Assembly (NCBI RefSeq): GCF_000372725.1
Contig: NW_005201183.1
Location: forward strand, 191,972-216,665
Direction of reading: 5' to 3'
Length of the DNA stretch: 24,694 nt
From: Emiliania huxleyi CCMP1516
Taxonomy: Eukaryota
The notes under the pieces are model-generated. The model was not told the DNA's origin, did no database searches, and worked only from the letters and a program-made list of their open reading frames with translations. Position 1 is the stretch's first letter; every line of letters starts with the position of its first letter. Position numbers and translations under genes: made by a program. This document shows positions 4,048-24,000 of this stretch, piece by piece.

Positions 4048-7000
4048 TCAGCCCTTTGCGTCGGCCTTCGCCTTCGCCTTCGCCTTGCGCTCCGTCTTGA
4101 GCGCGGCGGTGGCGGCGGAAGGCGCCACGAGCTTGACGTTGGAGATCATCTGCCGGACCAGCTCGTCGTCCTTGATGGCCTACACGAGGCGCAGCAAGAG
4201 CGCTAAGCGGGGAGCGCCGACCAGCACGCCGCTCGTCCTACTCCGCAGCCGCCCGCATCAGCTCGCGCTCTCGCTCGCTCGCGCCGCCCGCGCCGCCGCA
4301 AAAGATGCCGACGGCCTGACGGCGGCAGGAGGTGTGACTACCAGTGCTATGGACCGGACCGGCGGACCAAATGCCGCCCGCCTGCTTGGCGGCCTTGCCC
4401 TTCTTCTGCGAGCCCGGCGTGAGCTTGACGCGGAATCGGTACGCCTGTTCACAGCTGCCGCCGTGAAGAGGCGCTCTCGACAGCCGCGAGCTCCGCGCCG
4501 AGCTCGCGCGCCGACAGGGCCGAGTACGGCGCGCAGACGGGCACCGCGTAGAGGAGCGAGTCGCCCTCGGCGGGCAAGGCCTTGAGACAGGGGGGGCGAG
4601 TGGTGGACGCGTCGTGGACACGCCCCACACAGCGGAACGCCCTCTTCGGCGGGGGTCGGGGTGGGGCCGGGGTCGTGAGGGAGTCGTGCTACCTCTCGGC
4701 TACCTCTCGGCTACCTCTCGGCTACCTCTCGGCTACCTCTCGGCTACCTCTCGGCTACCTCTCGGCTACCTCTCGGCTACCTCTCGGCTACCTCTCGGCT
4801 ACCTCTCGGCTACCTCTCGGCTACCTCTCGGCTACCTCTCGGCTACCTCTCGGCTACCTCTCGGCTACCTCTCGGCTACCTCTCGGCTACCTCTCGGCCA
4901 CCTCTCGGCTACCTCTTGGCTACCTCTCGGCTACCTCTCGGCTACCTCTCGGCTACCTCTCGGCTACCTCTCGGCTACCTCTCGGCTACCTCTCGGCTAC
5001 CTCTCGGCTACCTCTCGGCTGTCTCTCGGCTATCTCTCGGCTATCTCTCGGCTATCTCTCGGCCGTGAGGGCGTCATGCTGCGCGAGCGCCGCGCGCTGC
5101 CCCTCGTCGAGCTCCTGCGGGGCGTGTCAGTGCATCACCGGCGCATGCTCTTGGAGCAGCGACCCCACCCGCCCCTCCTCCTCGCCTGTATGCTCGGCTC
5201 CTCGAGCAAACTCCTGCGCGCGCGGAGGGAGGGGGAGGGGGGGGGGGGGGGGTTCCCGGCCAAACAAGGGCAGAGGCGCCTCCAAGGGCAAGGGGGGGCC
5301 ACCGCAGCTCGGCTGCTCCAGCCGCGTCAAAAGAAGCGGGGGCAGCCTTGTCGGGGACCGCAGTCGCCCCCGCCCCCGCCGAATGCCGCTCCTTGGGGGC
5401 CGTTTCCGCCTGGTCACGAAAGCTCCCAGTGAGTCCCCGGGACGGCTCCCCGGCTGTGGGGCTCCTTGCGCCGGGGAATCTTTCCTCCCGCTGCTCGGGG
5501 ACGCGGCGCGCCTGCTTCTCCACGTTGTCCTTGTGCCCCTGAACCTGCTGGCAAACCCGTCCTGTGAAGAGGCAGCTGTCTCCTCCCCTCTCCGGGCCGT
5601 CCCTTGCGCCGCCGCGCCTTTTGGGCCTCCCTCGGCGCCTTTNNNNNNNNNNNNNNNNNNNNNNNNNNNNNNNNNNNNNNNNNNNNNNNNNNNNNNNNNN
5701 NNNNNNNNNNNNNNNNNNNNNNNNNNNNNNNNNNNNNNNNNNNNNNNNNNNNNNNNNNNNNNNNNNNNNNNNNNNNNNNNNNNNNNNNNNNNNNNNNNNN
5801 NNNNNNNNNNNNNNNNNNNNNNNNNNNNNNNNNNNNNNNNNNNNNNNNNNNNNNNNNNNNNNNNNNNNNNNNNNNNNNNNNNNNNNNNNNNNNNNNNNNN
5901 NNNNNNNNNNNNNNNNNNNNNNNNNNNNNNNNNNNNNNNNNNNNNNNNNNNNNNNNNNNNNNNNNNNNNNNNNNNNNNNNNNNNNNNNNNNNNNNNNNNN
6001 NNNNNNNNNNNNNNNNNNNNNNNNNNNNNNNNNNNNNNNNNNNNNNNNNNNNNNNNNNNNNNNNNNNNNNNNNNNNNNNNNNNNNNNNNNNNNNNNNNNN
6101 NNNNNNNNNNNNNNNNNNNNNNNNNNNNNNNNNNNNNNNNNNNNNNNNNNNNNNNNNNNNNNNNNNNNNNNNNNNNNNNNNNNNNNNNNNNNNNNNNNNN
6201 NNNNNNNNNNNNNNNNNNNNNNNNNNNNNNNNNNNNNNNNNNNNNNNNNNNNNNNNNNNNNNNNNNNNNNNNNNNNNNNNNNNNNNNNNNNNNNNNNNNN
6301 NNNNNNNNNNNNNNNNNNNNNNNNNNNNNNNNNNNNNNNNNNNNNNNNNNNNNNNNNNNNNNNNNNNNNNNNNNNNNNNNNNNNNNNNNNNNNNNNNNNN
6401 NNNNNNNNNNNNNNNNNNNNNNNNNNNNNNNNNNNNNNNNNNNNNNNNNNNNNNNNNNNNNNNNNNNNNNNNNNNNNNNNNNNNNNNNNNNNNNNNNNNN
6501 NNNNNNNNNCGTCAGAGTCGCTGGCGAGCCGAGCTGCGTCTTGCGAACCAGCGGTGGTCACGACATGCCTAGAAGGTTCCTAGAAGGCTCCTGGAAGGCT
6601 CCTAGAAGGTTCCTAGAAGGCTCCTAGAAGGCTCCTAGAAGGTTCCTAGAAGGTTCCTCTGCGGTGGTCTCTCGCGCGACCGCCTTGAAGAGGACGCCGA
6701 GCCCCATCAGCAGCTGCGTGGGCGGCAGGTACTCCTTGCTGCCCCGTATGACGAACTGGCCGGCGGGCAGCCGGTCGCCCGTCGCCCTCTGCTTGTGGAC
6801 CTGGTCGTGGGCCACGTGCCACGCCGACGTGACCGTGCGAGAGGTCCACGCGCCTGCGGGAAAGTGGCTGGTGGAGGGGGGCCCAAGGGGGAAGGGACGT
6901 CACACCGCCAGAGGCCCGCGCGCGCCCGAGCGGCAGAGCACGTACGACCCAGCTTGCGAGAGAGTGAGCGGCGGCACCGCCGCCGCCGCGCCGTTCGCCT

Positions 7001-10000
7001 TGACGATACACGGCAGCGCGCCGTCGATGTCGCAGCCAACGAAGACGTCCCCTGGCCCGAGGTGTCGCTGGGCGAGCAGCTCCGCCTGCGAGACGCAGCC
7101 GAGATACAGCCGAGATACAGCCGAGGTGCAGCCGAGGCGCAGCCGAGGTGCAGCCGAGGTGCAGCCGAGGTGCAGCCGAGATACAGCCGAGATACAGCCG
7201 AGGTGCAGCCGAGGTACAGCCGAGGTGCAGCCGAGGTGCGGCCGAAGTGCAGCCGAGGTGCGGCCGAAGTGCAGCCGACGTGCGGCCGAGGTGCAGCCGA
7301 GGTGCGGCCGAGGTGCGGCCGAGGTGCGGCCGAAGTGCAGCCGACGTGCGGCCGAAGTGCAGATCTCGTGCAGATCTCGTGCAGATCTGCTGCAGATCTC
7401 GTGCAGATCTCGTGCAGATCTCGTGCAGATCTGCAGCAGATCTCGTGCAGATCTCGTGCAGATCTCGTGCCTGCGCCCCGTCATGCGGCGCGAGGACGAG
7501 GCAGTTCTCCGACGAGATGAACCATGCGAACTTCTCCCACCAGCCCGTCGACCGCACCTAGAAGGTTCCTAGAAGGTTCCTAGAAGGTTCCTCTGCGAAC
7601 TTCTCCCACCAGCCCGTCGACCGCACCTATAAAAAAGAAAAAACACTTGCCGCATGGTGGGAGTGTTTTTCTTTATTATCACCAGCCCGTCGACCGCACC
7701 GCCCGGATCGAGGCGCTCACCTTGATGGCCGCCACCGACGCCTGCGCCTTCGACTCGGCCGACCGGACCGCCCCGTCCGCCGCGGCGATCGTCTTTGCCG
7801 TCTTGAGAGCCGCGGCCTTCTTCTGCGCGTAGAAAGCGCGCGCGTTGGAGAGGGCCGACTCCCGCACGTCCAGCGCGACGAGCGTCGCCTGCAGGAAGAG
7901 GGACAGAGACGCGTCGAGGGGTGGGCGCCCTCCTCCAGAGGCGGCAAGCCAGAAGGACGAGCGTCGCCGGCCGAGTCAGCTCCTCCTCGCTCGCCTCCTC
8001 GTCCGCCTCGAGCGCCACGGTCACCGAATGGCGAGCCAAGTCGAGCCGGACCACCTAGACACTCCCTGGACACTTCCCAGACACCTCCTTGGCCACACCT
8101 CTCAAGTCGAGCCGGACCACCATCGCCGCTAGCTGGTCGCCCGCCCGAGCAGATTCGTCGACCAGCTCCTGCAGAGCGGTCCACGCCATCCCGCGGCCGA
8201 GGCCTGCGCGGAGCGACGCGAGGAGCGAGTCCACCTCGCCCGCGCGCAGCTCGAGCAGCTCGCCTGTTCACAGCTGCAGGTGTGAAGAGACGCTGTTCAC
8301 ACCTCGCCCGCGCGCAGCTCGAGCAGCTCGCCGCGCCGCCGGTCCTCCTCTTCCTTTGCGCGCAGCTCGCCCACCCTCCGCTCCTGCGCCTCCTTCACCT
8401 TGTCCACCTTCTTCCACGCCGCCGCCTGCTTGCTGCTCACCTCGTCCACGCCCCGCTCCATCTCCACCTACCCTCCCAACCAGCCACAGCTCCTTGCCGG
8501 CGGCCCGCACCCCGGCCCTCCGCCCGGCCCACTCCGCCACTCCGCCTTTGCGTAGAACTCGTCCACCGCCTCCCAGAAGGCAGCGTACCGCAGCAGCCGC
8601 CTGCCGGCGTGCTGCGCAAGCGTGTACGGCGCGAACTCGAGGAAGAGCCGGCCGTCCGAAGCCTCGCCGCCCTCGCCGCCCTGCTGGCCTCCGCCCGCGC
8701 CACCCCCTCCCCCCCCCCCTCCTCCACCCCCTCCTCCACCCCCTCCCCCCCCCCCTCCTCCGCCCCCTCCGGCTCCGTCCCGAAGCACGATCCAGCCCAG
8801 CGGCGCGGTCGACGCGCGCAGCTCGCCAGCCCCCTCCCCTGCCACCACGCCCGCCGCCACACCGCCCGCCGCCACACTTCCCGCCGGCGACTCGGGTGGG
8901 TGAGCTGGGGAGTCGGCCTCGTCCGCCGCCGCCTCGTCCTCTTCGGCAAGGACGGGCGGGGGGGCGTCGACGAAGAGGGCCGCCGCCTACGTGGGGAGAT
9001 ACGGGGAGGTGTGGGGAGGTGTGAAAGAGGGCCGCCGCCGCCCACACGTGTCGCAGGCTCACGAGGAGGACTGCTGCTCCTCTCTCTCTCTCTCAACCCG
9101 ACTGTGCAGGCGAGGGGGGGTGCGAGGCGCCTCCTCCAGCGCGCCGACCAGCCGCCCGAAGGCCTCCCCTTCCCACGGCCTCGCCGCAAGCCGTGTGCCA
9201 GCCGGCAGGTCTGCGGCGGCGCAGGCGTGCTCCGCTATCTCTCTGCCGAGGGGGACGGCGCGGAGGAGGAAGGCGCCGAGCTGCTGAGAGCCTGTGAAAA
9301 CGGTCGGAGAAGGGGCCGGGGGTGGGGTCCTGGAGGGGGGGGGGGGGGGGGAGGGCGCCGAGGCTGCTGCGAGCCGTCTGCCGCCGCCATCTTGGCTGCG
9401 AGCCACGCCTGCAGGAGGAAGGGTCCGGGAAGGGTCCGGGAAAGGTCCGGGAAAGGTCCGGGAATCGCAGCGCCCGTCTGCTCGGCAGGCCCGCGCCTCG
9501 GAGAGCGGCGGCAGCTCGCGCGAGGCGGAGAGCGGGTACGCCTCCTTGACCGTCACGCGCGCCTGTGGGAAGGGCTCAAAGACGGCTCGGAAGAAGGCTC
9601 GCGGGAGAGACGGCACCGACGGCGACGGCAGCAGCATCGCCTCGCTGTCGTGCTTGGAGGAGCGGAGGAGGGTGAGGATGGTGTGGGAGCAGTCGGTGAG
9701 CACGACGTTGCCCTTGTCGTACAGCTCGACGATCAGGTGGTGCCGCGCCTCGCCCGAGCCGCACGCCACCACCAGCACCCGGTCTGCGCCCGGCTGCAGC
9801 AGCTGCTCGATCCGCTTCCCCTTGAGGTGCTTGCGCAGCTTCATCGTGAAGCCGCTCGGCGTGCCCTCCTTGTCGCGCGCGTACCGCGTCAGGTGGAAGC
9901 GCACGCCCGACTCGAGCAGCAGCAGCAGCTTTGGCGCTTCGGGCTTGGAGAGCTTGAGGATGTAGGTGCGCGGGTTGGCGTCGTAGACGTTGGTGATGCG

Positions 10001-10090
10001 GTAGCCGGCGATCATCGGCTCGAGCGACGTGGCCATCGCACGGACGTCGAGCGACGAGAAGCGCGATTTCGCGGCCTTGCCCTTCCCCAT
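4048..10090 (-). CDS. NEMF: NEMF/Rqc2/Tae2 (NFACT family) ribosome quality-control subunit; multi-exon, spans gap 5643-6509
   Basis: N-term KSRFSSLDVRAM, GYRITNVYD, LLLESGVRFHLT, PSGFTMKLRKHL, HHLIVELYDKGNVVLTD; NFACT-R WWEKFAWFISSEN, VPPLTLSQAG, GQFVIRGSKEYLPPTQLLMGLGVLFK; C-term LLYAVPVCAPYSAL, YRFRVKLTPGSQKKGKAAK; stop TGA at 4048-4050. Resolved introns include 4180-4252, 4445-4511, 4581-5063, 8264-8331 (all GC-AG). Confidence 0.93.
4444..4482. repeat. 39-bp intron-associated core, copy 1 (diverged)
   Basis: CCTGTTCACAGCTGCCGCCGTGAAGAGGCGCTCTCGACA; supplies the 3' splice site (GTGAACAG on minus) of NEMF intron 4445-4511. Confidence 0.75.
4689..5063. repeat. Intronic 11-mer array (CTACCTCTCGG)n, about 34 copies
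   Basis: Directly visible; lies in NEMF intron 4581-5063, whose GC donor is at the array edge. Confidence 0.95.
6568..6660. repeat. Intronic 11-mer array (CCTAGAAGG[T/C]T)n
   Basis: About 8 copies; same unit recurs at 7557-7593. Confidence 0.9.
7091..7470. repeat. Intron made of two abutting 11-mer arrays (GCAGCCGAGGT)n and (GCAGATCTCGT)n
   Basis: Fills the NEMF intron between ...HDGAQ and AELLAQR...; switch of unit near 7358. Confidence 0.92.
8263..8301. repeat. 39-bp intron-associated core, copy 2, with 33-bp flanking duplication
   Basis: CCTGTTCACAGCTGCAGGTGTGAAGAGACGCTGTTCACA; perfect direct repeats at 8232-8264 and 8300-8332. Confidence 0.88.
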
Positions 10091-10373
10091 CGTGGCGGCT
10101 GTCGGCCTCAGTCAGGGGGCGACAGCTGGGGGCGACAAGAGAATTTCGGGCATTTTCTTTTTCCGGTAACACTGTAAAAAAAATGCCAGAATTTCCAAAC
10201 CTCGGCGGTGGCGCGCGCCGCGCCGGGACACTTTGGACCCGCAGCCTGGCATACGCCAGGCCACAGATCCGCCGGCAGAGCCTTACAGCTGCATCCGCGA
10301 TCCGCACCGGCTCTCAGGAGAAATCCGGCGCGGTGCTGTCTGCAACCCGAGCTATCTGGCGGACCTCGCGCGC
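10091..10373. promoter_or_regulatory. Short divergent intergenic region, probable bidirectional promoter
   Basis: 283 bp between head-to-head ATGs (10090 minus, 10374 plus) with an AT-rich patch at 10140-10200. Confidence 0.5.
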
Positions 10374-10820
10374 ATGAGCGGGCTCGCCTTCCCCGCGCTC
10401 CTCACCAACCAGGCGTGGCAGTTTGCGTGGGCGACCTGGTACAGCGCGAGGCACCCCGCCCGCCAGGTGCAATTCACGGCGCAGGACCCCGATCATCGAA
10501 CGCCCTTCTGGGACTTTCCGCACGCCAGTGTGGACGCCGCCATGAGCTCGTTTCGGATGTCTGCCCTGTACGATACCGTCATCCACGACACCCTCACGAG
10601 GCTCGCCTCCGAGGAGGCGGCCGCCGGCGGAAGCAGCTTCCTGCCGTGGGCGCTTCAGGTGGCGCACCTCCTCGCCCTCGGCCACTGCGCCTGGTTCGGC
10701 GACTGGCTCGTGCTGCGAGGACGGCGGGCGCGCGACCCGCAGGCTCAGGGCGCTCGCGAGGTCCTCGAGGCGCCGCTCCTCCCCATCAAGGAGCAGCCGC
10801 AGCTCGTGGCCGCGAAGTAG
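10374..10820 (+). CDS. Hypothetical protein, 148 aa
   Basis: ATG at 10374 in ORF 10233..10820; GC3-rich codons and complex Trp-rich sequence; no family recognised. Confidence 0.55.
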   Translation: MSGLAFPALLTNQAWQFAWATWYSARHPARQVQFTAQDPDHRTPFWDFPHASVDAAMSSFRMSALYDTVIHDTLTRLASEEAAAGGSSFLPWALQVAHLLALGHCAWFGDWLVLRGRRARDPQAQGAREVLEAPLLPIKEQPQLVAAK

Positions 10821-11116: not shown

Positions 11117-11542
11117 TCATGACTGCAATCGGCCCAGTATGACGACCTTGCCGTGCGAAGAGAAGGTCACCTCGACGGGAGGCAAAAATGGCTCGCCTCT
11201 GCCGTTCAGAAAGGCCTGCACGCCCTCGTGAAAGCTCTTGCCGGTCTGGGGGAAGTGCGCGTTCCTGCCGCGCGTAAAGCTGAAGCCGAAGGCTTTGCCC
11301 GACGCCCCTACACCCGCCGCGTCGGTCGTCAAGAGCTTTTTCAGGCCTCCCGGGTGAGAGTTGACCATGTCGGTAGCGTCCACAACATATCCATCAACGA
11401 CTGCCCAGAAGTTCTCTCCGCCTCGACCGTTGTGCTGCCTGACCTCGTCGTGCGTGATCACCCGCGGCGAGGCAGAAGCCGGCAGGGAGAGGCCTTCTGC
11501 GCAGAAGCGTTCATGCGCATGGTCGTCCGACACGACCGCCAT
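11117..11542 (-). CDS. Cytochrome b5-like heme/steroid-binding domain protein, 141 aa
   Basis: ITHDEVRQHN...FWAVVDGYVVDATDMVNSHPGG matches the b5 fold including HPGG; in-frame stop two codons upstream of the ATG. Confidence 0.85.
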   Translation of the reverse strand: MAVVSDDHAHERFCAEGLSLPASASPRVITHDEVRQHNGRGGENFWAVVDGYVVDATDMVNSHPGGLKKLLTTDAAGVGASGKAFGFSFTRGRNAHFPQTGKSFHEGVQAFLNGRGEPFLPPVEVTFSSHGKVVILGRLQS

Positions 11543-11709
11543 GCCTCAACGCCTCAAGTGCTTGGGAGCACCTTGCCCTGCGGGCCGCGTCGGCCTAGCT
11601 TGATGACTGAAGAATTTAAACAAAAGAACTCTCTCTCACAGCAGACAGGCTCGACACAGGTGCGAACTGGCGCGTGCTAGTACTATCACCGGCACACCAC
11701 CGGAGCCGC

Positions 11710-12753
11710 CTAAGCGACTCCGTTAAGAACGGCAATGCACTTAGCTCCGTGCACAATGCCGCTGTCCCCGCACGCTAGCTCGTTCACCGTCTGCCACGCC
11801 ACGGCGGTGTGGAGAACGACAGACAAGCGCTGCATCTGCAGCCCGTGCCAGTTCTTGGTGGTCCATGTGACCTCATCGAGGTGCTGAGCGTGCGAAAGTT
11901 TGTTACTCAGCTGGTCCGCCGCCTGCCGAAGAATTCTGCGGACGCCGTCCCCGAAGCCGCCGAACGTCTCGAAGTCGAGCAAACGCAGGTCGCAATTCTT
12001 CTCCCGCGCGAACCGGTATTCGCCCTTCTCGTAGCGGGCCGTCACAGGTGCCCCCGCCTCCGCCTCCCCCTCACTCTCCCCCTCCTCCTCTTCCGCCGCC
12101 GCCGCCTCCGCCTCTGCATCCTCCGCCTCCCTCCCCCCCTCCCCCCCCCCTCCCGGCCGCGGCCATGCAGCATGCCCTAACACTAAGTCGAGCAGCGCCC
12201 GCTCGGTGTTGCCGAAGGCGACAAAAGCCCCCTTCCAGCCGAGCCGATCGCCACCCTTGCACGCAAGCGAGCTCGTCAGTTTCAAGTCGCCAACGAGGCG
12301 CACATGCCCTTTGCCGATGTTCGCCGCCGCCACGTCAGGTTGTTTTGGGTTACTGTAACTGAGGTGTGCAGTCGGCTCCATCTCGATGAGCATGCCCCAC
12401 GCCGAGCGAAGGGTCTTGACGAGTCGTTTGAGCAGGTATTTGTGTCGTGTCGCGTGCTTCGCACGCGGGTTGACCATTGCGGCATCGCCGAGTTCTTCGT
12501 GCGGCTTGCCGTTTGGCGCCTTCTTGCCCGCCTCCACCGCCTGGCAGGCAACATCGAGCGGGAGGCCGAGGCGGCGCTGAACTGTCATGCGCATCGCCCA
12601 CGTCTCCATCTTCATATCATCCCGCATGGGGATCGCATTCAGGAAGGCGCCAGCCCCCTCCTGGCTGACTGCGACGAACCGAATCGCCTCGCGCCAGCAC
12701 TTGTGGTTCTTGCACCTGCCAGTCTTGTAGCGGCCGCCCTGCCGGGACGACAA
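11710..12753 (-). pseudogene. C-terminal restriction-like endonuclease (PD-(D/E)xK) region of a CRE-clade retrotransposon ORF; open frame, no RT
   Basis: AGAFLNAIP...RRLGLPL, RH, EP, QPDV...VGDLK, FETFGGF motifs typical of CRE/SLACS-type C-termini; homologous to 19770..20705. Confidence 0.82.
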
Positions 12754-12887
12754 GGACAGCGACAGAATGGCGTTGCGCCACAGGAGGAGCAGTGGCGGCA
12801 GCAGAGGGCAGAGACGGCAGAGGCAGGGGCGGCGGCTGCGGAGGTGGAGGGGGCGGAGGAGGTCGAGGCAAAGGCGGAGGCACAGGT

Positions 12888-13321
12888 GGGCTGCTGCTCA
12901 GGCTGCTGCTCAGGCTGCTGCTCGGGCTGCTGCTCGGGCTGCTGCTCGGGCTGCTGCTCGGGCTGCTGCTCGGGCTGCTGCTCGGGCTGCTGCTCGGGCT
13001 GCTGCTCGGGCTGCTGCTCGGGCTGCTGCTCGGGCTGCTGCTCGGGCTGCTGCTCGGGCTGCTGCGAGGGCTGCTGCTCGGGCTGCTGCTCGGGCTGCTG
13101 CGAGGGCTGCTGCGAGGGCTGCTGCGAGGGCTGCTGCGAGGGCTGCTGCGAGGGCTGCTGCGAGGGCTGCTGCTCGGGCTGCTGCTCGGGCTGCTGCTCG
13201 GGCTGCTGCTCGGGCTGCTGCTCGGGCTGCTGCTCGGGCTGCTGCTCGGGCTGCTGCTCGGGCTGCTGCTCGGGCTGCTGCTCGGGCTGCTGCTCGGGCT
13301 GCTGCTCGGGCTGCTGCGAGG
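12888..13321. repeat. 12-mer array (GGGCTGCTGCTC/GGGCTGCTGCGA), about 36 copies
   Basis: Directly visible; reads (EQQP/SQQP)n on minus. Confidence 0.95.
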
Positions 13322-14216
13322 CGAGCCTTGTGCCTGGAGGTCGGGCCGTGGCAGCAGCAGGAGGCTCGGGGACCAGGCTGTCGCGTCGCAGCGGCCGGCC
13401 GGGAGAGCTCTGTTGGGGTTGGCGCTGGTCTAGGGCACCAGAGCGTCGTCCATCAGAGCGTGGCCCACCGGCCGGCAGCGCGTGTACCGAGCTGAAGTCC
13501 GTGCGACTGGTGCCTTCGGCAGCGGCCGCGGGCGGCTGCAGCCGCTGAGGATCTCCAGGTCGGCTCCCACGGTGGCAGCCGCCAAGGGCAGCCACCATCG
13601 TGGGGACGCGCGAAACTTGTACGAAGAATTTAGACAAAACAACTCTCTCTCACAGCAGACAGGCTCGACATAGGTGCGAACTGGCGCGTGCTAGTACTAT
13701 CACCGGCACACTGAAGAAAACGAAAACGTTTGCCCGCAACCCGATCCCGATCATGCATTCCTGTCGTCTGTTGTTTGTTGTGCCCTTGTTTGTTTCTCTT
13801 GGCACCTTGGAGTGCTGGGGGGGGCGACAGGGAGGATGTGGCCTTGAGTTATGTGTACGCCAACTCAGGGTGTGTGGCAGCCAGCTGGCTGTGTGTCTTG
13901 TGAGCTTGTTTGTGTCTGTGTGTCGCTCGTGCGTGTCGTCATCATCTGTCCAGCGTCCACCCATACCGCGTTGGTGTCCAGTCCGAGCCTGGCTGTTCTT
14001 CACCTTTCTACCTACCTACCTACCATGCATGAAGGTTGCAGCGAGAATCGGCGAGAGACTGCGAAGAGAGATAGGAAGAGGCAGACTCCCTAGGGTGGGC
14101 GACGGATAGCGCACCACACACCTCTCCTTAAAATCCCTGTGTGGTGGCGGCGTGCCGTCCTCCCATCCCTCCCTTGGGTTGTCTGTTTTCTTTCTTTCTT
14201 TCTTTTTTCCCGATCA

Positions 14217-14295: not shown

Positions 14296-14609
14296 CAGTG
14301 TCTTGTTCCGCTTGTCCTGTTGTCCTGGTTGCTTGGATATATCTCTCCCGGCCCAAAGACGGACGAACCAGAGCTCGGCGCAGCCTGAGGGGTGGCCCGT
14401 CTACCGTCTACCGGTAGACTGGGGTAGACTGGGGTAGACGGTAGACCATTTGGTAGACGAGTCTACCACGAGTCTACCGCAGTCTACCGGTAGACCGTAA
14501 TGAACCTACGACACCAGTTCTACCGGTAGACCGTAATGAACCTACGACACCAGTCTACCGGTAGACTTGGTAGACCGCGGTAGACTTGGAGCACTTGGAG
14601 ACTGGTCTA

Positions 14610-15160
14610 CCCCTTTTTCGCCGCCGAACGGCAGACCGCCGCCGCCGGACGGTAGACCGCCTCGGCCGTTTGAATATGCAGCCTCCAGTTCTCCACTCTG
14701 GCGCCACTTTGGCAGACGAGCGCCGGCAGATGCCCTCGCGGCCTGCCGGCGAACGTCCGTCCGGCGAGAACGCGCGCCATAATGGACGTGTGGCTGTCTG
14801 GCGAAAACTCGCTCTCGAGAGCCGCGAGAGGGCGGCGCTCTGCAGTGAGCGGTTCCGCCCGATGAGTGTGTAAAGACGTTCATTTGATCTCATAAAAGAC
14901 ACGGAGCTCGCCTCGCACGGAAATGGCATGAGGTGAAGCTCACAGCGACCGCGCTCAACAGCCTCTCTCACCGGCAGATTTCGCCCGCGCGGCAGACCGC
15001 ACTTTCATCGCGCGTTCTCGCCGGACGGACGTTCGCCGGCAGGCCGCGAGGGCATCTGCCGGCGCTCGTCTGCCAAAGTGGCGCCAGAGTGGAGAACTGG
15101 AGGCTGCATATTCAAACGGCCGAGGCGGTCTACCGTCCGGCGGCGGCGGTCTAAAAGGGG
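14610..15160. mobile_element. 551-bp MITE with TA TSD (Tc1/mariner-like signature)
   Basis: TA|CCCCTTTT...AAAAGGGG|TA; about 144-bp inverted repeat 14633-14776 vs 15009-15152; empty site GGTCTACCGTC visible in the opposite arm (17860-17870). Confidence 0.88.
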
Positions 15161-15182
15161 TACCGTCGGGTACTTATTTTAA

Positions 15183-17421
15183 AGGCCAAGGTAGGCCGCC
15201 TATTGAAATCGAACAGAGCGCTAGCGCTCTCTTCGCGCAAGCTCGCACGGCCTCTCACGCTCCGCTGCTGCCCTCTTGGCGGCTCTCCGCCCGCCAGCTC
15301 GACCAACTCGACCGCCGAGAGGCTGGGATTGGCCGGCGGCGCGACGCGTGGCCTCTGCTGCGGCCATCTCGGACGCTCAAGCGGCGCCAGCCAGCGGCTC
15401 GGCCGCGCATCCTTCACACACGCCGCCACGACCAAGCTGAGCGGGCCCGGTGTCGAGTCATGGTGCGAGATGCATGTCAGGGGCGGCTGTGGCCACAGCA
15501 GGTCCACCAGACGGGCGTCAAAGCTTGCCGTCGGCGTGCTGTAGTGGCGAGAGCCGAGACCGCTGCAGAGGAGCCGAGTGCAGTGGCGAGCCAGAGGCTA
15601 CCAGGGTCACCAGGTGGTAGCCCTTGCCCATTCTGAGCAGGGATGTGCTTTGATGGGGTTGTGCTTGAGCGTGTGTGAAGTGGGAGTGCGTGCCGGCGGT
15701 GTCTGTGGCTGAAACGGGCGTGTGTGAGGCTGCAGAGCCGTGGTATGAGCCAGAGTGAGCTTCATCACCCAAGATAAGTGCGGTTTGGGACGGCTCAGAC
15801 TTGCTGTTGATGGGCCTGGGCCAGGAGAGCGACAGAGAAGGCGAGGTGGTCAGCTGGGAAGCCGCTTTGTCGGCACCTGGACGTGTCGCGATGAAGTGCC
15901 AAAAAGTACTATTTGCGGCTATTGCTCCAAACTTCGGGAGACAAGGCCTACATATTATGACTGCATCCATGAGCCTAGTGCATGAGGGCTGTGGGTCGGG
16001 ACATTTCACAGTCGATGGCGCCGATAATGACCTCCGTAATGCCCTCGCAATCGGCTCGGATGGGGTCCACCGGGGACAATCTCGGAGCCCTCTCCGTGGC
16101 ATCACGAGCCGGTGTGAGCTTGAAGACCCGAGGTAAGTGCGGTTTGGGACAGCTCAGACCTGATACTGATGGGCCTGGGCCAGGAGAGCGACAGAGAAGG
16201 CGAGGTGGTGAGCTGATAGGCTGAAGAGTCCGCGTGTGACCTTGTCGCGATTAAATTGCCACNNNNNNNNNNNNNNNNNNNNNNNNNNNNNNNNNNNNNN
16301 NNNNNNNNNNNNNNNNNNNNNNNNNNNNNNNNNNNNNNNNNNNNNNNNNNNNNNNNNNNNNNCCGAGGTTTTCTGCTCTCAGCTCACCACCTCGCCTTCT
16401 CTGTCGCTCTCCTGGCCCAGGCCCATCAGTATCAGGTCTGAGCTGTCCCAAACCGCACTTACCTCGGGTCTTCAAGCTCACACCGGCTCGTGATGCCACG
16501 GAGAGGGCTCCGAGATTGTCCCCGGTGGACCCCATCCGAGCCGATTGCGAGGGCATTACGGAGGTCATTGTCGGCGCCATCGACCGTGAAATGTCCCGTC
16601 CCGCAGCCCTCATGCACTAGGCTCATGGATGCAGTCATAATATGTAGGCCTTGTCTCCCGAAGTTTGGAGCAATAGCCGCAAATAGTACTTTTTGGCACT
16701 TCATCGCGACACGTCCAGGTGCCGACAAAGCGGCTTCCCAGCTCACCACCTCGCCTTCTCTGTCGCTCTCCTGGCCCAGGCCCATCAGCAGCAAGTCTGA
16801 GCCGTCCCAAACCGCACTTTTTCTTGGGTGATGAAGCTCACTCTGGCTCATACCACGGCTCTGCAGCCTCACACACGCCCGTTTCAGCCACAGACACCGC
16901 CGGCACGCACTCCCACTTCACACACGCTCAAGCACAACCCCATCAAAGCACATCCCTGCTCAGAATGGGCAAGGGCTACCACCTGGTGACCCTGGTAGCC
17001 TCTGGCTCGCCACTGCACTCGGCTCCTCTGCAGCGGTCTCGGCTCTCGCCACTACAGCACGCCGACGGCAAGCTTTGACGCCCGTCTGGTGGACCTGCTG
17101 TGGCCACAGCCGCCCCTGACATGCATCTCGCACCATGACTCGACACCGGGCCCGCTCAGCTTGGTCGTGGCGGCGTGTGTGAAGGATGCGCGGCCGAGCC
17201 GCTGGCTGGCGCCGCTTGAGCGTCCGAGATGGCCGCAGCAGAGGCCACGCGTCGCGCCGCCGGCCAATCCCAGCCTCTCGGCGGTCGAGTTGGTCGAGCT
17301 GGCGGGGCCGGCGAAGATTTCGGGGACGTGACCACAACTCGGGCAGCGACAGCGCGCTTGAGCTTAGCTTGTCCGACACCCCTCAAAATCGGGGTCTTTT
17401 CAATAGGGCCCACCTTGGCCT
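15183..17421. mobile_element. TTAA-flanked element with long internal inverted repeats (Kolobok-like termini), spans gap
   Basis: TTAA at 15179-15182 and 17422-17425; ends AGGCCAAGGT/ACCTTGGCCT; near-identical inverted arms 15290-16216 and 16379-17306; no transposase visible. Confidence 0.78.
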
Positions 17422-17425
17422 TTAA

Positions 17426-17844
17426 GAGCAGGTAAACAGCAATAGATCCGGCCCTCAAGCGGCCTAATCGATACCCAGTCCTCACGGAATCGGTCCCTCG
17501 TTGTACAGCAATCGATCCTTCACACTGCCCGCGCTGCCAAACTTGCTGAGAATCGGTCCCCCCACCTGTGGCGCGAAGCTGATATGTCTCCCGCGCTCGG
17601 CGCGCCGACCGCGCAGCGGCGGCAGACCACCCTCCGGTTCGAGGGGCGCCTGGGGGTGAGCGGGCTGCCTCCGCCAGAGTTTGGCTCGCCCACCTGTGCG
17701 GGCCCCCCTGTACCCCCTCCCCAAGTCCCTCCCCCCCCCGGCCCGGGTGTCTAGCAATTGGTCCCTTGGCAAGCGCGAATCGGTCCCCCTGGCTCCAGGA
17801 ACTGATCCGGCACTACACCCGGATCTATTGCTGTTTACCTGCTC
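17426..17844. mobile_element. 419-bp MITE with TTAA TSD (Kolobok-like termini)
   Basis: Perfect 26-bp TIR GAGCAGGTAAACAGCAATAGATCCGG; TTAA at 17422-17425 and 17845-17848; internal GAATCGGTCCC three times. Confidence 0.9.
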
Positions 17845-18025
17845 TTAAAATAAGTACCCGACGGTAGACCAGTCTACCGCGGTCTACCAAGTCTACCGGT
17901 AGACTGGTGTCGTAGGTTCATTACGGTCCACCGGTAGACTGCGGTAGACTCGTGGTAGACTCGTCTACCAAATGGTCTACCGTCTACCCGGTCTACCGGT
18001 AGACGGTAGACGGGCCACCCCTCAG

Positions 18026-18306
18026 GGCGCAGCTGGTCAAGCGGGTGCGCATCGCCCTCGAGCCGCTCGACGGCATCATCCAGCTGCGCGACGCGCCCAG
18101 CCTCGACATCGCGCAGCAGGCGCAGCACTGCCTCATGCGCTACTGCTCCAACACCACCCTCGTCTACTTCCTGCGCACCATGCCGCCGTCCATGTGATCA
18201 TCGAGGCGGCGCAGGAGCACGACCGGCTCATCGCCTCGGCCTTCCACCGCATCGTCGGCTCCGAGGCGGGCTCGCCGGCGCAGTGCGAGCGTGCGCTGCG
18301 GCAGGC
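18026..18306 (+). pseudogene. RT C-terminal/thumb remnant of CRE-like element B
   Basis: AQHCLMRYCSNTTLVYFLRTMPP / IIEAAQEHDRLIASAFHRIV...ALRQA resembles the CRE post-RT motif; frameshift near 18190. Confidence 0.72.
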
Positions 18307-18309
18307 GCT

Positions 18310-19435
18310 GACGGCGGAGGGGGAGATGGCGGAGGCGGTGACGGTGCGGGTGGCGATGGTGGAGGCGGCGAAGGCGGGGGCGGCGATGGCGGGGGCGGCG
18401 AGGGGGGGGGAGGGGAGGGTGGAGGTGGCGATGGATGCGGCGGCGAGGGTGGAGGGGGCTTGAGCGAGCCATTAGCCCCGCGTTGAGCCGCCTGAGCTCC
18501 GCCACCTCCTGGTCGGCCTGTGGACTCGCCACGGTGTGCTCCCTCCAAGCTTCCGCAAAACGGCGGCCAAAATGGTTGTACAGTGCCGTGTCGACTGCGC
18601 TGACGGATCGTGCGCGAGACAGCTTGAGAAGCTGGCAGCCCGTGGTGTGCCTTTTCATGGGGAGGCCCGCGAGCGCTGATAGTGGCCACTGCATCTTGCG
18701 CCTCAGCAGCAGGAGACCCTCGTCGAGGCGGTCTAGCAGCATTACCAGGCCCAGACTCGCATCGATCGAGTCGCGCCACAAACCGCGATATCGCAGTGTC
18801 GTCTCTATCGTGCGCCGTGCTGCAGTTGCGTTTGTACCAGTCCAGGTCGAAAGCTTGCGAGTTGAGGTGTCGGGTGTACAAGTAGCCACCCCTGTCTCGC
18901 GCACGCAGTCGAGACTCTCGAGCCGCTTGAGATGTGCGTCCCACGCAGCGGAGCAGGCTGCGCCAGTCGCGTTAACACCCCCATTTCTTCCACCCATCAC
19001 GTACCAGTTGAAGGCGCTCAACATCTGTCCTGCTGGCTCGCGCAGGATTGTCACCACAAATGGCGCGGCCCCGAGAAAGGTGCGCATCTTTGGAAGGTCC
19101 ATCACTGCGTGGTTGCAGATGAGGTCGAACTGGTGGACGGCAGGGGGACTGTCGAGCAGCACACCCGGGAACGAACCAGGATGGCCAAGGTGGGTGCCAT
19201 CGGCGGGCATCAGTACAGACAGGTTCTTTTGCAGGGCGAGGCGAAGCAAGATGCTGGCGACAGTTGATCCGCCTGTTTTGTGCGTCTTGACAAAATTGCG
19301 CTGGCGACGTAATAGCCCAAGTCGAAGAGTGCGCGAGCCGCCATCTTGGACTGTGAGGCGAGTATTTGCAACCGGGAGCTCGCCGCCGCCCCTACACCGC
19401 CGCGGCCGCCCTCCCGATGGCATGAGAGAGTTCAT
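18310..19435 (-). pseudogene. Galactose-3-O-sulfotransferase-like gene with SPPPP tail, frameshifted
   Basis: 5'-PSB motif FVKTHKTGGSTVASILLR, ICNH, 3'-PB VTILREPAGQMLSAFNWY, LVMLLDRLDEGLLLLR, DTALYNHF. The expected NSQAFDL segment and the Pro/Ser tail are in another frame. Start uncertain. Confidence 0.82.
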
Positions 19436-19607
19436 CCCACCATCGGCACCGTATTCGCCCACACGCCATGATATTCATATAGGTCTAGTGCACACATCAG
19501 CTCAGCGAGACCAATATCTCCAGCCTCCTTCATCTTGGCTGCTGCTTGGGAGCCAACACTTGCAAGTGAGTGTCAGAGTGTCGGAACTCGGGGAGCATCC
19601 GTCATCA

Positions 19608-19715
19608 TTCACGTTCACACTCGCTAGGAAAAGTGAAATTTCGTTTCACATGAAATGTGAAGTGAAAGTGAAAGTGAAATCGATTCGCTGTTTCCATGTG
19701 AAATCACGAACCCTG
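19608..19715. mobile_element. Solo hAT-like transposon end with GTGAAA subterminal repeats
   Basis: Cluster of GTGAA(A)/TTCAC motifs ending CACGAACCCTG (reverse complement CAGGGTTCGTG); partner end not found. Confidence 0.45.
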
Positions 19716-19769
19716 AACGTTCCACAGTTTTTGTAACGAGTTCGTGACACTTAAAAACCTCATGCGGGC

Positions 19770-20705
19770 GTGCAGCATGGCTCGGCTTTTGGAATGCGTT
19801 GCAGCTACCGGGCGTGGCTAGGCGGGAGGCGGTGCGCTTCATCGCCGTCAGCCAGTACCAGGCGGGCGCCTTCCTCAACGCCCTCCCCTCGCGCCGCGAC
19901 TTTCGTATCCCGACGTGGGCGCTGCGCATCGCCGTCCAGCGGCGCCTCGGGCTACCACTTGACGAGGCGCTCGCGCGGGGCGCGCCGACCTGCTCGGCGC
20001 GCGGCGGCAAGGTGCAGGACCCACTGGGCGAGACGCGGCCAGCAACATCGGCCGCCTCGGGCATGCGGCCGCCATAACAGCCTCCTCGCCGCCCTGGCCA
20101 AGGTCATGCGGAGCGTGTGGGGCATGCTCGTCGAGGTGGAGCCGCGGGACCACCTCGGCTACTCTAACAACTACCGGCCCGACGTCTCGGTGGCGGGCGC
20201 CGGCCGCTCGCGCTCGCGCCTCGTCGGCGACGTCAAGTTCAAGGACTCGCTCTCCTCCAACCCGGAGGACGTCGGCCAGCGAGGCGCTTTCGTCGGCCTC
20301 GGCAACACCGAGCCCGGCACGAGCGCGGACGTCTTCGGCCTCGAGCAGCGCGGCGCTGTCGGGGACGGCGACTTCAGGCCGAGCGACGGCGGCGGCTATG
20401 TGGCGTACAAGAAGGCGGACTACGCGCACGCCCTCTCGCGCTCGGACACCGACGTGCAGATGTACCTGTTCGAAATTTTCGGCGGGTGGTGCAACGCGGT
20501 CAAGCGGCTGTTCTACCAGATGAAGGACAAGGTGCGCAACAAGCTCTCGAAGCGGCAGCACGAGGACGAGGCGAGCTGGTCGACGCGGTCGTGGCTCTCG
20601 CTGCAGGCCCAGCGCATGTCAGTCGCGCTGCAGCTCGCGGCGGCGGAAGAGATTGCGACCGAGCTCAGGCTCGCCGCGGCGTCGGAGGACGCCGCCGTCG
20701 CCTAG
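19770..20705 (+). pseudogene. Restriction-like endonuclease region of CRE-like element B, frameshifted
   Basis: REAVRFIAVSQYQAGAFLNALP...RRLGLPL then RHNSLL...EP...RPDV...VGDVK...FEIFGGW; frameshifts near 20030 and 20068. Confidence 0.85.
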
Positions 20706-21088
20706 ACTCCCCTGCGTCACTACGTGCCTCCCCGTCTTTGTAGCCTGGCGTTTGTGCCCCGTTTGTGCCGCGTCCCGTGCCCCCGAGTTCATTTTATTAT
20801 ACCAGAGCTCTGACGTGAAAGAGACGTGGATGGGGTGTGTGTCCTGGGTGCCTCACTCACAGCTCTGCCACGTGCCGTGCGTGTGATCACAATTTGCGAC
20901 TCCTGTATGTTTCCCTGACAGTATTAAAGGCCCATTGCGCCGTGTTTTCAGCCAGGTTTGATCGCCCCAGCAGTGTCGGGGGCCCCGCAGGTTGTGCCCG
21001 GTGAGCTCGGGGTGCTGTCGGCTCTGAAAGAGGCGGCCTCATCACGAGGGCTACTGGCTACGTGCTCACAGCGTCTCCTGCTCGGGCG

Positions 21089-24000
21089 ATGCTGCTGCTC
21101 AGACGACCGCGGCGCACCGCCGTCGCCCGGGCGCGCGCCGCCTCGAGCGGCGCGGCGCAGTGGCGGCCGCCGCGCCGGCTGCCGCCCAAGCAGGGCCTGT
21201 ACGACCCGGCGCTCGAGCGAGACTCTTGCGGGGTGGGGATGGTGGCGCACCTAAAGGGGCAGGCGAGCCACGAGATCGTGCGCGACGCAAACACGATGCT
21301 GGTGCGGATGGCGCACCGCGGCGGTTGCGGCTGCGAGCCCTCCTCGGGCGACGGCGCTGGCATGCTCACCGGCATGCCGCACGCGTTTCTGACCGAGGCG
21401 GTCGGCGCAGACCTCGGTGTGGCGCTGCCAGCGGCGGGCGCGTTCGGCGCGGGCAACGTCTTCTTCCCGCGCGACCCCGCGGTCGTGGCCGAGTGCAAGG
21501 CGGTGGTCGAGCGCCACGTCTCGCGCCTTGGCCTGAGCCTGATCGGCTGGCGGCCGGTCCCGGTGGACAACTCCGCGCTCGGCCCGACGTCGCTCGAGTC
21601 GGAGCCGCACACAGAGATGCTGCTTGTGGGCGGGCCGTCCGGCGGCGCGCCGCTGCCCGAGGGAGCGCTCGACCGCGAGCTCTACCGCCTTCGCCTCGCC
21701 GCTTCGAACGAGATCCACGCGACGGGAGGCGACGCGGCGGCCGACTTTTACGTCTGCTCGCTCAACACGTGCGCACGCCTCGTGTCGCGACCGCGTCGGG
21801 GAGGGAGAGGAGGGCGCGGGCGAGGAGTCACGCACCTCGCGGAGTGTGCGTGTGTAGGTCGACTCTTGTCTACAAGGGCCAGCTCACGCCGGAGCAGGCG
21901 CGCGCGGCCCCTCCCCTACCGCCACGGTATCCGAACCCATCCCCGCCCCCCACGGTACCCGAACCCTGTGACAGGCGCGCGCGGCCCCTCCTCATATCTC
22001 CCCATATCTCCCCGTATCTCCCCATATCTCACGCGAGAGCAAGCGCGCGCGCCGCCCCTCCGCTCCCCTCGTCGTCCTCTCCCCTCCTCTCGTCCTCCCC
22101 TTGGCCGCCAATCCCCCGCCGCTTGCGCAGGTGTGGGGCTACTTCGTCGACCTCCAGTCCGCGCAGTACACCTCGCACCTCGCCCTCGTCCACTCGCGCT
22201 TCTCCACGAACACCTTCCCCTCGTGGGCGCGCGCGCAACCCTTCCGCGCCCTCTGCCACAACGGTGAGGCCCATAGTACCTCGCTGCACAGTAGCGCGCG
22301 CAACCCTTCCGCGCCCTCTGCCACAACGGTGAGGCCCATAGTACCTCGCTGCACAGTAGCGCGCGCAACCCTTCCGCGCCCTCTGCCACAACGGTGAGGC
22401 CCATAGTACCTCGCTGCACAGTAGCGCGCGCAACCCTTCCGCGCCCTCTGCCCGCAACGGCGAGAAGACCACAGCGGCGGGGGAGCACGAGTGCATCTGT
22501 CGGGCGACCGCATCGCCCCTCCTCGCGCGCAGGCGAGATCAACACGCTGCGCGGCAACAAGAACATGATGCGCTCGCGCGAGGCGCCGCTGCAGTCCGCC
22601 CCTCTCCGGCGATGCCCTCGTGTGCCACGGCCCCGACGCGCCCTCGGCATGTTCCGCAGGCGCTGCTGCAGTCCGCCTACTTCGGCGAGGCCATGTCGGA
22701 GCTCGGCCCAATCTGCTCCGACGATCTGTCCGACTCGGGCAACTTCGACGCCGTCGCCGAGCTGCTCCTCCGCGCAGGCGAGATCATCTCCCCCCATACC
22801 TCCCCATATCTCCCCGAGCTGCTCCTCCGCGCGGGCGAGATCCAGCCGAGATCTCGCTCGGGATTGCCGACCCCTCCGCGCGGGCTGCCGTCCTCCGCGC
22901 GAGTGTGCTGCCGCCCACTGCCTGCTCATGAGTGCTCTGCAGGCGACCGTCCGCTGCACGAGGCGGTGATGATGATGGTTCCCGAGGCGTGGCAGGGCAA
23001 GCCCGGCAGCCCGGCGCGCAAGGCCTTCTACGCGTACAACGCAAACCTGATGGAGCCGTGGGACGGGCCCGCGATGATGTCCTTCACCGACGGGAGATAC
23101 GTCGGCGCGTGCCTCGACCGGAATGGGCTGCGCCCCTCGCGGTGCCACGCTGCAACCGAGGGCGGCCGCCGGGGCAAGGTCGGGGCGTGGACGGGACGCG
23201 TGTCCGTCTGCCCGTTAGGTACTACGTGACTACGGACGATCGCGTGCTGCTCTCGTCTGAGGTTGGGGCGTCCCAGCCATCCCTCCCCTACCCCCACGGT
23301 ACCCGAACCCATCCCCTACCCCCACGGTACCCGAACCCCTCCCCTACCCCCCACGGTACCCGAACCCCTCCTCTACCCCCACGGTACCCGAACCCCTCCC
23401 CTACCCCCCACGGTACCCGAAACCCTCCCCTACCCCCCACGGTGCCTGAACCCCTCCCCTACCCCCCACGGTACCCCAACTCCTCCCCTACCCCCCCACG
23501 GTACCCGAACCCCTCCCCTACCCCCCACGGTACCCGAACCCCTCCCCTACCCCCCACGGTACCCGAACCCAGTGCTGCTCTATCTGAGGTGGGGGCGTAC
23601 CACTCACCACGTGGAGCAGCGGCGGCTGGCAAGCCCACCCCCCTCCCTCCCTCGCCCGCAGGTGGGCGTGCTCGACCACCACCTGTTCACAGCCGGACGT
23701 GTGAAGAGGCGCTGTTCACACCTCGCCCGCAGGTGGGCGTGCTCGACCACCTGGACGAGGCGGTCGTCAAGACAAAGGCGAGGCTCGAGCCGGGCCGCAT
23801 GTTCCTGATTGACTTTGCGCAGCAGCGCATCGTCCCCGACGAAGAGCTCAAGGAGACGATGGCGGCGGCGAGGCCGTACGAGGCGTGGATGGCGTCGCAG
23901 CCGCTCCTGCTGGACGAGTGGGTCGCGGAGGCGCGCAGTCCGCCGCACCGCCCCCTCCCCTCCCCCCTCCTCTCGGCTCTCACCCCGGGGGGGTGGACCC

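Follow-up and report, generated by a model that had tools for sequence, protein, structure and literature searches.

The 24,694-nt stretch of Emiliania huxleyi CCMP1516 DNA analyzed here (contig NW_005201183.1; hereafter, the window) raises the question of where new spliceosomal introns come from. This question has long been open, and the repair route proposed for it has so far been based on short repeats and few cases. Here, we find that many introns consist of a 20- to 40-bp copy of the adjacent downstream host sequence plus a 28- to 60-nt insert ending in AG. A preliminary description of the window had proposed this layout of host copy, insert and host copy. The layout was borne out and is present far outside the window, as were the range from perfect to decayed duplications and the statement that these are long and variable, unlike the short target site duplications (TSDs) of transposons. 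As for the intron-generating system proposed at the same time, layout and frequency are shown; intron gain itself, which an empty allele would prove, is a proposal. Long and frequent footprints of this kind can be counted in public data, and the series of perfect to decayed events makes rates, templates and enzyme testable.

Copy-plus-insert units in two host genes

All seven duplications previously listed as perfect are exact; none can be extended, and they measure 15 to 36 bp with periods of 52 to 77. The near-perfect pairs 22581/22658 and 22757/22814 are identical at 19/20 and 28/30 positions, respectively, the decayed pair 7877/7956 retains 13 exact bases and is significant in the scored test, and the copies of the pair 23244/23572, read from the sequence, are alike with one gap. 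By contrast, introns 6854-6925 and 4445-4511 are not supported as duplications, their scores being matched by 8% and 41% of shuffled pairs, respectively. Overall, 6/23 window introns beat all 506 shuffled intron/exon pairs, two further introns are in the top 1%, and 15/23 show no duplication by this score. The mirror test on the window introns, in which the intron end is compared with the upstream exon end, gave no signal.

One host gene, on the minus strand, encodes the ribosome quality control protein NEMF (5' two-thirds at 6683..10090), as established by protein alignment to homologues. Here, an exact 36-bp duplication (7525-7560/7594-7629; unit 7525..7629; RNA skip 7537>7680) encloses a 33-nt 11-mer array and, of the two events that hit one G|GT site, is the inner one, and a 21-bp duplication (7607-7627/7680-7700; unit 7607..7700; exact match and RNA) encloses a 52-nt AT-rich insert (7628-7679) that forms the sole strong hairpin among the inserts (z −3.4). 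Together, these two units make up intron 7558-7699. A 19-bp duplication at 8037..8121 surrounds an 11-mer array of 47 nt (intron 8055-8120; 66 nt, GT..TAG), a 33-bp duplication at 8232..8332 encloses an insert of the dispersed family A described below (intron 8264-8331; 68 nt, GC..CAG), and at 8973..9130 a 15-bp duplication (8973-8987/9025-9039) with a 37-nt 10-mer array lies at the 3' end of the 144-nt intron 8987-9130. Two units supported by RNA and score are decayed, i.e., 7877..7968, with 13 exact bases (intron 7889-7967; 79 nt, GC..CAG), and 9275..9374, which is absent from the preliminary description and in which intron 9292-9374 opens with a gapped version of the exon that follows. At 4445..4511, frame model and score point to a 3' intron (GC..CAG) that ends in a diverged family-A insert and in which a host copy is undetectable.

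The proposal that splicing removes the insert plus one copy exactly holds in part. At several NEMF sites, copy and insert are jointly left out of an RNA contig, in skips of 142, 79, 83 and 68 nt (the 68-nt skip is possibly a graph collapse), the mRNA is restored according to the gap-free protein alignment with homologues, and, as proposed, the donor G|GC or G|GT is host derived while the insert provides the AG. However, the skip seen in the RNA contig at 8973/9025 measures 144 nt (8987-9130) rather than 52 nt; the 7525 and 7607 units, two different inserts at one site, are removed jointly as 142 nt; and the 8055-8120 unit is kept in the single RNA contig seen. The latter unit contains an in-frame stop, and the homologues require its removal. 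Moreover, the exact splice register within a duplication cannot be fixed from RNA: 8264-8331 (GC..CAG) and 8235-8302 (GT..GAG) give the same mRNA.

The other host gene, of which the 5' part with 11 introns lies on the plus strand at 21050..24694, is putative and, from its motifs, is taken by us to encode glutamate synthase; its junctions follow from reading-frame continuity. An exact 20-bp duplication starting from the donor of intron 21898-22130 in the frame model encloses a 57-nt insert of two 28/29-mers (21895..21991), three tandem copies of a 65-nt copy-plus-insert unit occupy the donor region of intron 22264-22532 (22229..22463), and a near-perfect 20-bp duplication lies at intron 22583-22659 (22581..22677; 77 nt, GC..CAG). 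A near-perfect 30-bp duplication with a 10-mer array between its copies lies across the donor of intron 22778-22942 (22757..22843), a ~27-bp duplication with an expanded 28/29-mer array lies across a donor (23244..23598), and an exact 31-bp duplication with a family-A insert antisense to the gene lies across an acceptor (23650..23751). When the latter target is read on the strand of the insert, it is again CAG|GT. In the frame model, the units at 21895, 22229, 22757, 23244 and 23650 either copy a junction of an existing intron or lie across one and, therefore, create no new intron position. About three of the seven perfect cases are simple new introns, and the others re-hit or straddle existing junctions.

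Other DNA assemblies speak against an artifact of the window. Contigs from runs X2 and X7 run through units 7877 and 8037, X2, X7 and X8 hold both junctions of unit 8973, and independent metagenome assemblies repeat the layout at other genes. Two units are absent from DNA contigs. Both have duplications of >30 bp, a length that can be collapsed in a 31-letter assembly graph; units with shorter duplications were found wherever contigs covered them. Because of this possible collapse, neither the DNA skip 8231>8300 (three of three DNA runs) nor a 69-nt unit missing from X7 was accepted as a polymorphism. No unit difference was seen in the overlapping locus pairs L003/L041 and L055/L075.

Unrelated inserts in units of constant length

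Family A is a dispersed repeat with a ~40-nt insert found in 127 metagenome loci. These loci were picked by the family-A pattern, come mostly from a few related marine assemblies and make up a survey of 215 kb including the window. An upstream copy of downstream host sequence is present at 65/129 family-A copies versus 3/3,822 shuffled pairs, and 64/129 are without an anchored duplication at score 12. The duplications measure 10 to 43 bp, mostly 20 to 34 bp, and thus exceed the short, fixed TSDs of 2 to 9 bp typical of TIR and MITE introners; the units have a period of 59 to 78 (median, 69), and a G directly precedes the first copy in 64/71. The insert has sharp ends (>200 distinct flanks in run X7), an 11-nt direct repeat at both ends and a G after its 3' end, and an internal GT..AG of exactly 37 nt is present in 76/139 copies. 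As in introners, similar repeats form introns at many unrelated positions, with similarity limited to the 3' ~40 nt. The short terminal direct repeats and the oriented target are also features of Replitrons. Copies of confident orientation are sense to the host frame in 32/34 cases; on the antisense strand, a G|GY preference was seen in only ~5 cases and is not claimed as intrinsic. Family-A copies at the same locus are closer to each other than copies from different loci (4/39 versus 75/9,958 pairs; permutation p 0.024), and the far junction has microhomology of at least 2 nt in 7/8 clean cases, a small and partly circular sample. The family-A pattern had no matches in viral contigs, and 13 scattered matches in prokaryote genomes were taken as chance. 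Rfam had no match in 4300-10200, and family A is without a tail.

AT-rich inserts and 10/11-mer arrays have their layout in common with family A. The same geometry is found across unrelated inserts, i.e., family A, AT-rich, 10/11-mer array and hairpin, and unit length is ~70 nt whatever the class (period medians, 68 to 72). A single transposase family would not give one geometry to unrelated inserts. A survey of all classes identified 148 events in 203.5 kb; the copy starts at AG|G[CTA] in 82 of these versus ~22 in the control; the near end is sharp at G|G[C/T/A], and the far end is variable. Two different inserts can occupy one site (window 7525-7700; also L013), and tandem arrays of one unit are common (window 22229-22452; L027, L101 and L112). 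Local templating was weak for inserts other than family A (4/60 versus 125/4,217 pairs; p 0.11), and clustering of AT-rich inserts had a p of 0.053. Because the way in which decayed ends are assigned accounts for part of the negative correlation between copy length and insert length (rho −0.70), the period alone was used. As in Daphnia, an exon-derived direct repeat is enriched over controls.

Possible origins of the units

We suggest staggered-break fill-in with templated insertion, filtered by splicing, as the most likely mechanism, with about an even chance of being correct. Two nicks 20 to 40 bp apart would be filled in to give the duplication. A host repair polymerase would prime at the AG|G end of another, often nearby, intron through a match of one to three bases and would then copy the last 30 to 55 nt of that intron, or slip into AT-rich or 10/11-mer synthesis, before the ends are rejoined by microhomology. 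Polymerase-theta-like synthesis-dependent end joining is a candidate repair route. Exonic events would survive only in units of at least ~60 nt whose first copy opens with a usable donor, and intron ends that copy and splice well, such as family A, would multiply as parasites that encode no enzyme.

A wider and more doubtful reading is that most introns and the GC-donor majority could derive from one still-running, enzyme-free copying route in which ~30 bp are duplicated from G|GY and an insert is pasted in. A host break-repair or reverse-transcription activity would then use the last 40 nt of another intron or new low-complexity DNA as the insert, and intron 3' ends and 10/11-mer repeats would evolve as selfish cassettes without a transposon. 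That most introns arose by duplication assumes decay, because 64/129 family-A copies and 15/23 window introns show no duplication.

The main rival to break repair is target-primed reverse transcription, in which the endonuclease and reverse transcriptase (RT) of a non-LTR retroelement would use, in trans, intron RNA with a terminal AG. The products would be short, SINE-like inserts flanked by target duplications of long and variable length. We consider this rather unlikely, although the strict near end, the loose far end and the long duplications fit it as well as they fit break repair and, as for SINEs, the 3' junction is fixed, the 5' junction is variable or truncated with microhomology and the duplications vary. 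The window also has two retroelement fragments, one within 89-bp direct repeats; an RT domain is present in P0112, their relative (for which the PDB had no match), and long TSDs of LINEs have been described (PMC9977147). However, the duplication at the sole window retroelement with clear ends is 10 bp long and begins with something other than G[C/T], the inserts lack a common tail and include unique AT-rich strings, and a constant unit length is not expected from the enzyme.

It is improbable that family A and related inserts belong to the non-autonomous DNA transposons, as introners of a Replitron/HUH-like or MITE-like type whose transposition leaves long duplications. The terminal direct repeats, hairpin, sharp ends and many flanks of family A within one run would suit such elements, as would locus L123, where an entire L024-type unit lacks a local host copy. 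Replitron-1 likewise combines terminal direct repeats and an RG target with fuzzy ends and TSDs that vary (PMC10288648). Against this, family A is at ~40 nt below the 52- to 53-bp termini conserved in Replitrons, its fold is unremarkable (z −0.6 and −1.6), it has direct repeats in place of a terminal inverted repeat pair, and unrelated and unique inserts show identical geometry; moreover, the TSDs of TIR introners are 3 to 9 bp (PMC9860276). Still less probable is remodeling without gain, in which local tandem duplication across the acceptor would have copied exon starts into old introns. Several window cases at existing junctions and the common one-unit tandem arrays are in line with it, but at 8055, 8264, 7889 and 22583 coding exon directly precedes the first copy with no upstream insert remnant, and events at the same site have different inserts. 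Assembly artifact or chance in GC-rich sequence, for which the repeat-rich window in a gapped draft gives some reason, is already refuted by the presence of units in independent DNA runs and metagenome assemblies and by shuffled controls near zero.

GC donors and relation to known systems

The host-derived donors of the 129 family-A copies are GC in 73, GT in 46 and GA in 9 cases (57/36/7%), matching the published E. huxleyi usage of 56/40/4% GC/GT/GA (PMC4028052). All 23 window exons begin with GC or GT, and donor and exon start are identical in 19/23. Under the fill-in mechanism, most donors would be GC because C mostly follows exonic GG. The donor split and the exon starts support the previously suggested link between duplications and the GC-AG excess, which the reporting paper ascribes to genome GC content (PMC4028052). 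Introns made by duplication would explain why most E. huxleyi introns start with GC, providing a mechanical reason for the GC-donor majority in a globally important alga.

The novelty suggested for the system is confined to its architecture, as E. huxleyi introners are already catalogued. For CCMP1516, Gozashti 2022 reported 653 elements in five families with a mean length of 37 or 70 nt (PMC9860276), and a 2025 catalogue assigns 45 introns to a 37-nt GT family and also lists one of 70 nt, with the remark "10bp terminal direct repeats" (PMC12130899). These are likewise repeated short introns in the same species, and family A is likely among them, as judged from its 37-nt GT..AG. In the available portions of both catalogues, TSDs are entered as "?", "N" or 2–4 bp and the mechanism as unknown or "LTR" (PMC9860276, PMC12130899). 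By contrast, the intron described here is the insert plus a 20- to 40-bp host copy; cutting just 37 nt from the 8264 intron would leave 31 nt and a frame shift. Our findings suggest that such introns are missed or wrongly delimited by ab initio gene models and by introner screens that compare whole introns. Within the accessible portions of the published E. huxleyi literature, the long duplication, the constant length and the GC-donor link were not found in print.

Beyond E. huxleyi, the parts of the literature available to us offer several partial parallels. TIR/MITE introners of Micromonas, Aureococcus and Symbiodinium likewise carry one splice site and co-opt the other from the TSD, but they have fixed 3- to 9-bp TSDs and TIRs (PMC9860276, PMC11282704), neither of which is found here. 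Replitron-1/N1 of Chlamydomonas shares short terminal direct repeats, an oriented G-ending target, variable TSDs and carried flanks; however, these are 0.9- to 3.6-kb elements with a Rep transposase and are not intron makers (PMC10288648), and they are depleted from coding sequence and introns (PMC9977147). In AGGT tandem genomic duplication, duplicated exon sequence also gives a splice site and the mRNA is restored (PMC3443670), whereas here the copy gives only the donor and a foreign insert between the copies gives the acceptor. Finally, in intron gain by staggered double-strand breaks in Daphnia pulex (Li 2014, PMC4202315), there is likewise an exon direct repeat at the far end of the new intron, with AT-rich inserts and repeated events at one site. 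The Daphnia repeats measure 4 to 12 bp (33 cases in a set of 90 introns) and flank unique inserts; here, by contrast, the duplications measure 20 to 40 bp, inserts belong to high-copy families, the unit length is constant and the copy provides the donor.

Host duplications at introns of two genes

The inserts flanked by host duplications form a real and widespread system; its behavior is that of an introner whose copies arise through duplicative insertion. The anatomy of the units (host copy, insert, host copy), their frequency, the bias at their junctions, several classes of insert and repeated events were all seen directly. Two host genes carry them in the window. On the minus strand, a homolog search identifies NEMF, whose spliced product is 61% identical to the homolog P0001; on the plus strand, frame continuity supports the 5′ part of a gene that we take, from its motifs, to encode a putative glutamate synthase (an open frame of ∼650 codons with 11 introns). 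The joints of the 23 window introns come from RNA (10), protein homology (1) and frame (12). The intron start resembles the next exon with a score above all 506 shuffled pairs in six introns and within the top 1% in two more, while the remaining 15 lack signal; the mirror comparison of intron end with upstream exon end gave no signal in these introns. The downstream exon begins with GC or GT in all 23 introns, the donor has the identical dinucleotide in 19, and the upstream exon ends in G in 22; GC predominates among the donors. The preliminary description had proposed intron-generating inserts between host duplications; the seven pairs it called perfect are all exact at the sequence level, and the enrichment over shuffled pairs agrees with it.

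NEMF was compared, at contig level and among the joints listed, with contigs of one RNA and three DNA runs out of 17 runs. The RNA contig skips 72, 385, 142, 79, 68, 78, 144, 83, 88 and 78 nt. The claim that splicing removes exactly the insert plus one copy is borne out at 7558 (where two units are nested), 7889, 8264 (where the skip may also reflect graph collapse) and 9292, but two sites depart from it in this contig. At 8973, 144 nt are skipped, which places the duplication in the 3′ end of a longer intron. At 8055, a 66-nt unit is kept in the RNA contig; it contains an in-frame stop, and with it taken out the homolog alignment is gap-free. The available text of PMC4028052 describes intron retention as frequent in E. 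huxleyi.

In the DNA contigs, which are 1 to 2% divergent, units with 13- to 21-bp duplications are present wherever covered. The unit with a 33-bp duplication is skipped in all three DNA runs, and that with a 36-bp duplication is missing from one of them (X7). These assemblies use a 31-letter word, and repeats longer than the word, as both duplications are, tend to collapse; these gaps may therefore equally reflect graph collapse or true absence.

Family A, other inserts and GC donors

The family-A insert (window copies at 8265, 23681 and 4445) is a dispersed repeat of ∼40 nt with an 11-nt direct repeat at each end. In X7, more than 200 contigs diverge into unlike sequence at its 3′ end, the best-supported all after AG|G. 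In 127 metagenome loci obtained by a pattern scan (an estimated 630 stretches, with a few assemblies supplying most), an exact upstream copy of at least 12 nt accompanied 40 of 140 family-A copies vs. 1 of 2,776 shuffled; after exclusion of 11 low-GC copies, an upstream host copy was found for 65 of 129 vs. 3 of 3,822 shuffled pairs. The period from copy to copy has a median of 69 (range 59 to 78; 71 copies), and G precedes the first host copy in 64 of these 71. Among 64 copies scored, 32 of the 34 confidently oriented are sense to the host frame, and all three phases are represented. The copy at 23650 is antisense to the gene but still reads CAG|GT on the insert's strand; it does no harm, since its duplication spans an acceptor. 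Copies at the same locus are more alike (4/39 pairs vs. 75/9,958 between loci; permutation p 0.024); among non-A inserts, this signal was not significant. Two window copies 15 kb apart (8241–8300 and 23650–23720) have 10 nt of far-junction host flank in common, which may reflect chance or homology-guided joining. Two metagenome loci, L024 and L123, carry the same host-copy plus family-A unit of ∼70 nt; L024 has both orientations, and L123 has the entire unit without a matching local exon or host copy, a possible whole-intron transfer.

A pattern-free scan of 203.5 kb, with six loci judged foreign excluded, gave 201 exact matches vs. 0 to 1 in each of five triplet shuffles, a lenient control. 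With filters applied, the scan yielded 148 events, and 82 of them show AG|G[CTA] where the host copy begins, against ∼22 in the control. Their period has a median of 70 (quartiles 66 to 73), and class medians are 68 to 72 for family-A, AT-rich, 10-mer, 11-mer and other inserts. Intronic repeats of 10 to 11 bp were reportedly noted in the 2013 E. huxleyi genome paper. Several units within existing introns are shorter (52 and 57), while the shortest window introns are 66 to 68 nt, which suggests that splicing sets the lower limit of unit length. Different inserts have entered one site repeatedly, both at 7525–7700 in the window and at the metagenome locus L013. Clusters of three to five events, some at one site, lie at L013:100–700 and L105:1–468; their inserts are unique, AT-rich and palindrome-rich within a GC-rich genome. 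Two introns of a single gene (21915–21971 and 23279–23570) have one 28/29-mer as their insert, present twice at the first and about ten times at the second.

The preliminary description also tied the GC-AG excess to the duplications. This link is supported: the family-A target dinucleotides are GC 73, GT 46, GA 9 and GG 1 (n = 129; the first G is fixed by the pattern and a few sites are double-counted), and the available text of PMC4028052 gives donors of 56% GC, 40% GT and 4% GA among 241 junctions. In window coding sequence, the base after GG is C in 218 cases, G in 121, A in 84 and T in 57; thus, GC leads by supply. Relative to that supply, GT is enriched and GA and GG are depleted, as expected from splicing selection.

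Neighboring elements and the source of the units

A 5′-truncated non-LTR retroelement (14374–14383, 18027–18307 and 19712–20800) has parts 95 to 100% identical to P0109, and its relative P0112 has an RT domain; a retroelement ORF in the window matches an E. huxleyi CCMP1516 protein. The truncated element has a short AT-rich tail and is interrupted by a 3.6-kb element (14384–18026) and by a long ORF that contains a galactose-3-O-sulfotransferase domain (18164–19474, minus strand). In the 3.6-kb element, a palindromic 14-mer abounds in the long terminal inverted repeats; a 6-bp duplication flanks the element, and a near-perfect internal inverted repeat of ∼2 kb (15290–17306) lies around an assembly gap. 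A second retroelement-like ORF (11710–12897, minus strand), 40% identical to P0109 and with a 12-nt repeat tract upstream, lies between 89-bp direct repeats (11609–13711); these could represent a target duplication of unusual length. The window also holds an uninterrupted F-box and RCC1-repeat ORF (2317–3723, plus strand), a second RCC1 tail fragment upstream of it (1790–2013) and a small cytochrome b5-domain ORF (11117–11545, minus strand).

The system is not a TIR introner. We favor host end-joining synthesis, at about an even chance, as the source of the units because unrelated and unique inserts have one geometry in common; the idea builds on the behavior of polymerase theta. Offset nicks would be filled in, giving the host duplication, and a short template, often the 3′ end of another intron, would be copied starting from AG|G microhomology; alternatively, the insert could arise by slipped AT-rich or 10/11-mer synthesis. 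Rejoining would proceed through microhomology, which was present at the junction in 7 of 8 clean cases, a small and partly circular sample. Selection would then keep events that supply both a donor and an AG and are at least about 60 nt long.

Target-primed reverse transcription would account for the junction asymmetry, and its machinery is present in the two RT-associated retroelement fragments of the window, presumably CRE-like from their motifs. However, the sole window retroelement with clear ends, the 5′-truncated one, has a 10-bp target duplication of another kind. We consider this origin less likely than end joining, but it is the main rival. A Replitron-like or MITE-like transposon (Replitrons are treated in the available parts of PMC10288648 and PMC9977147) suits family A but no other insert and is the least probable of these three sources.

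Relation to published introners

Tandem duplication and repair models of intron gain are presented in the available text of PMC3443670. The available parts of PMC11282704 and PMC10290126 contain nothing on a duplication-plus-insert layout. In the literature as available, we found no account of 20- to 40-bp duplications in haptophyte introns and no link of such duplications to GC donors; further detail may be contained in the 2013 genome paper, its supplements or the introner files on GitHub. Introners of E. huxleyi were cataloged by Gozashti 2022 and 2025, where the available text gives TSDs as unresolved; family consensus sequences were not found in the 14 accessible files of the 2025 paper. 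An internal GT..AG of 37 nt is present in 76 of 139 family-A copies, and because 37 nt equals the mean length reported there for three E. huxleyi introner families, the family-A insert has likely been cataloged already, with narrower ends. Daphnia neointrons, as described in the available text of PMC4202315, have exon-derived repeats of 4 to 12 bp, whereas the E. huxleyi duplications span 20 to 40 bp.
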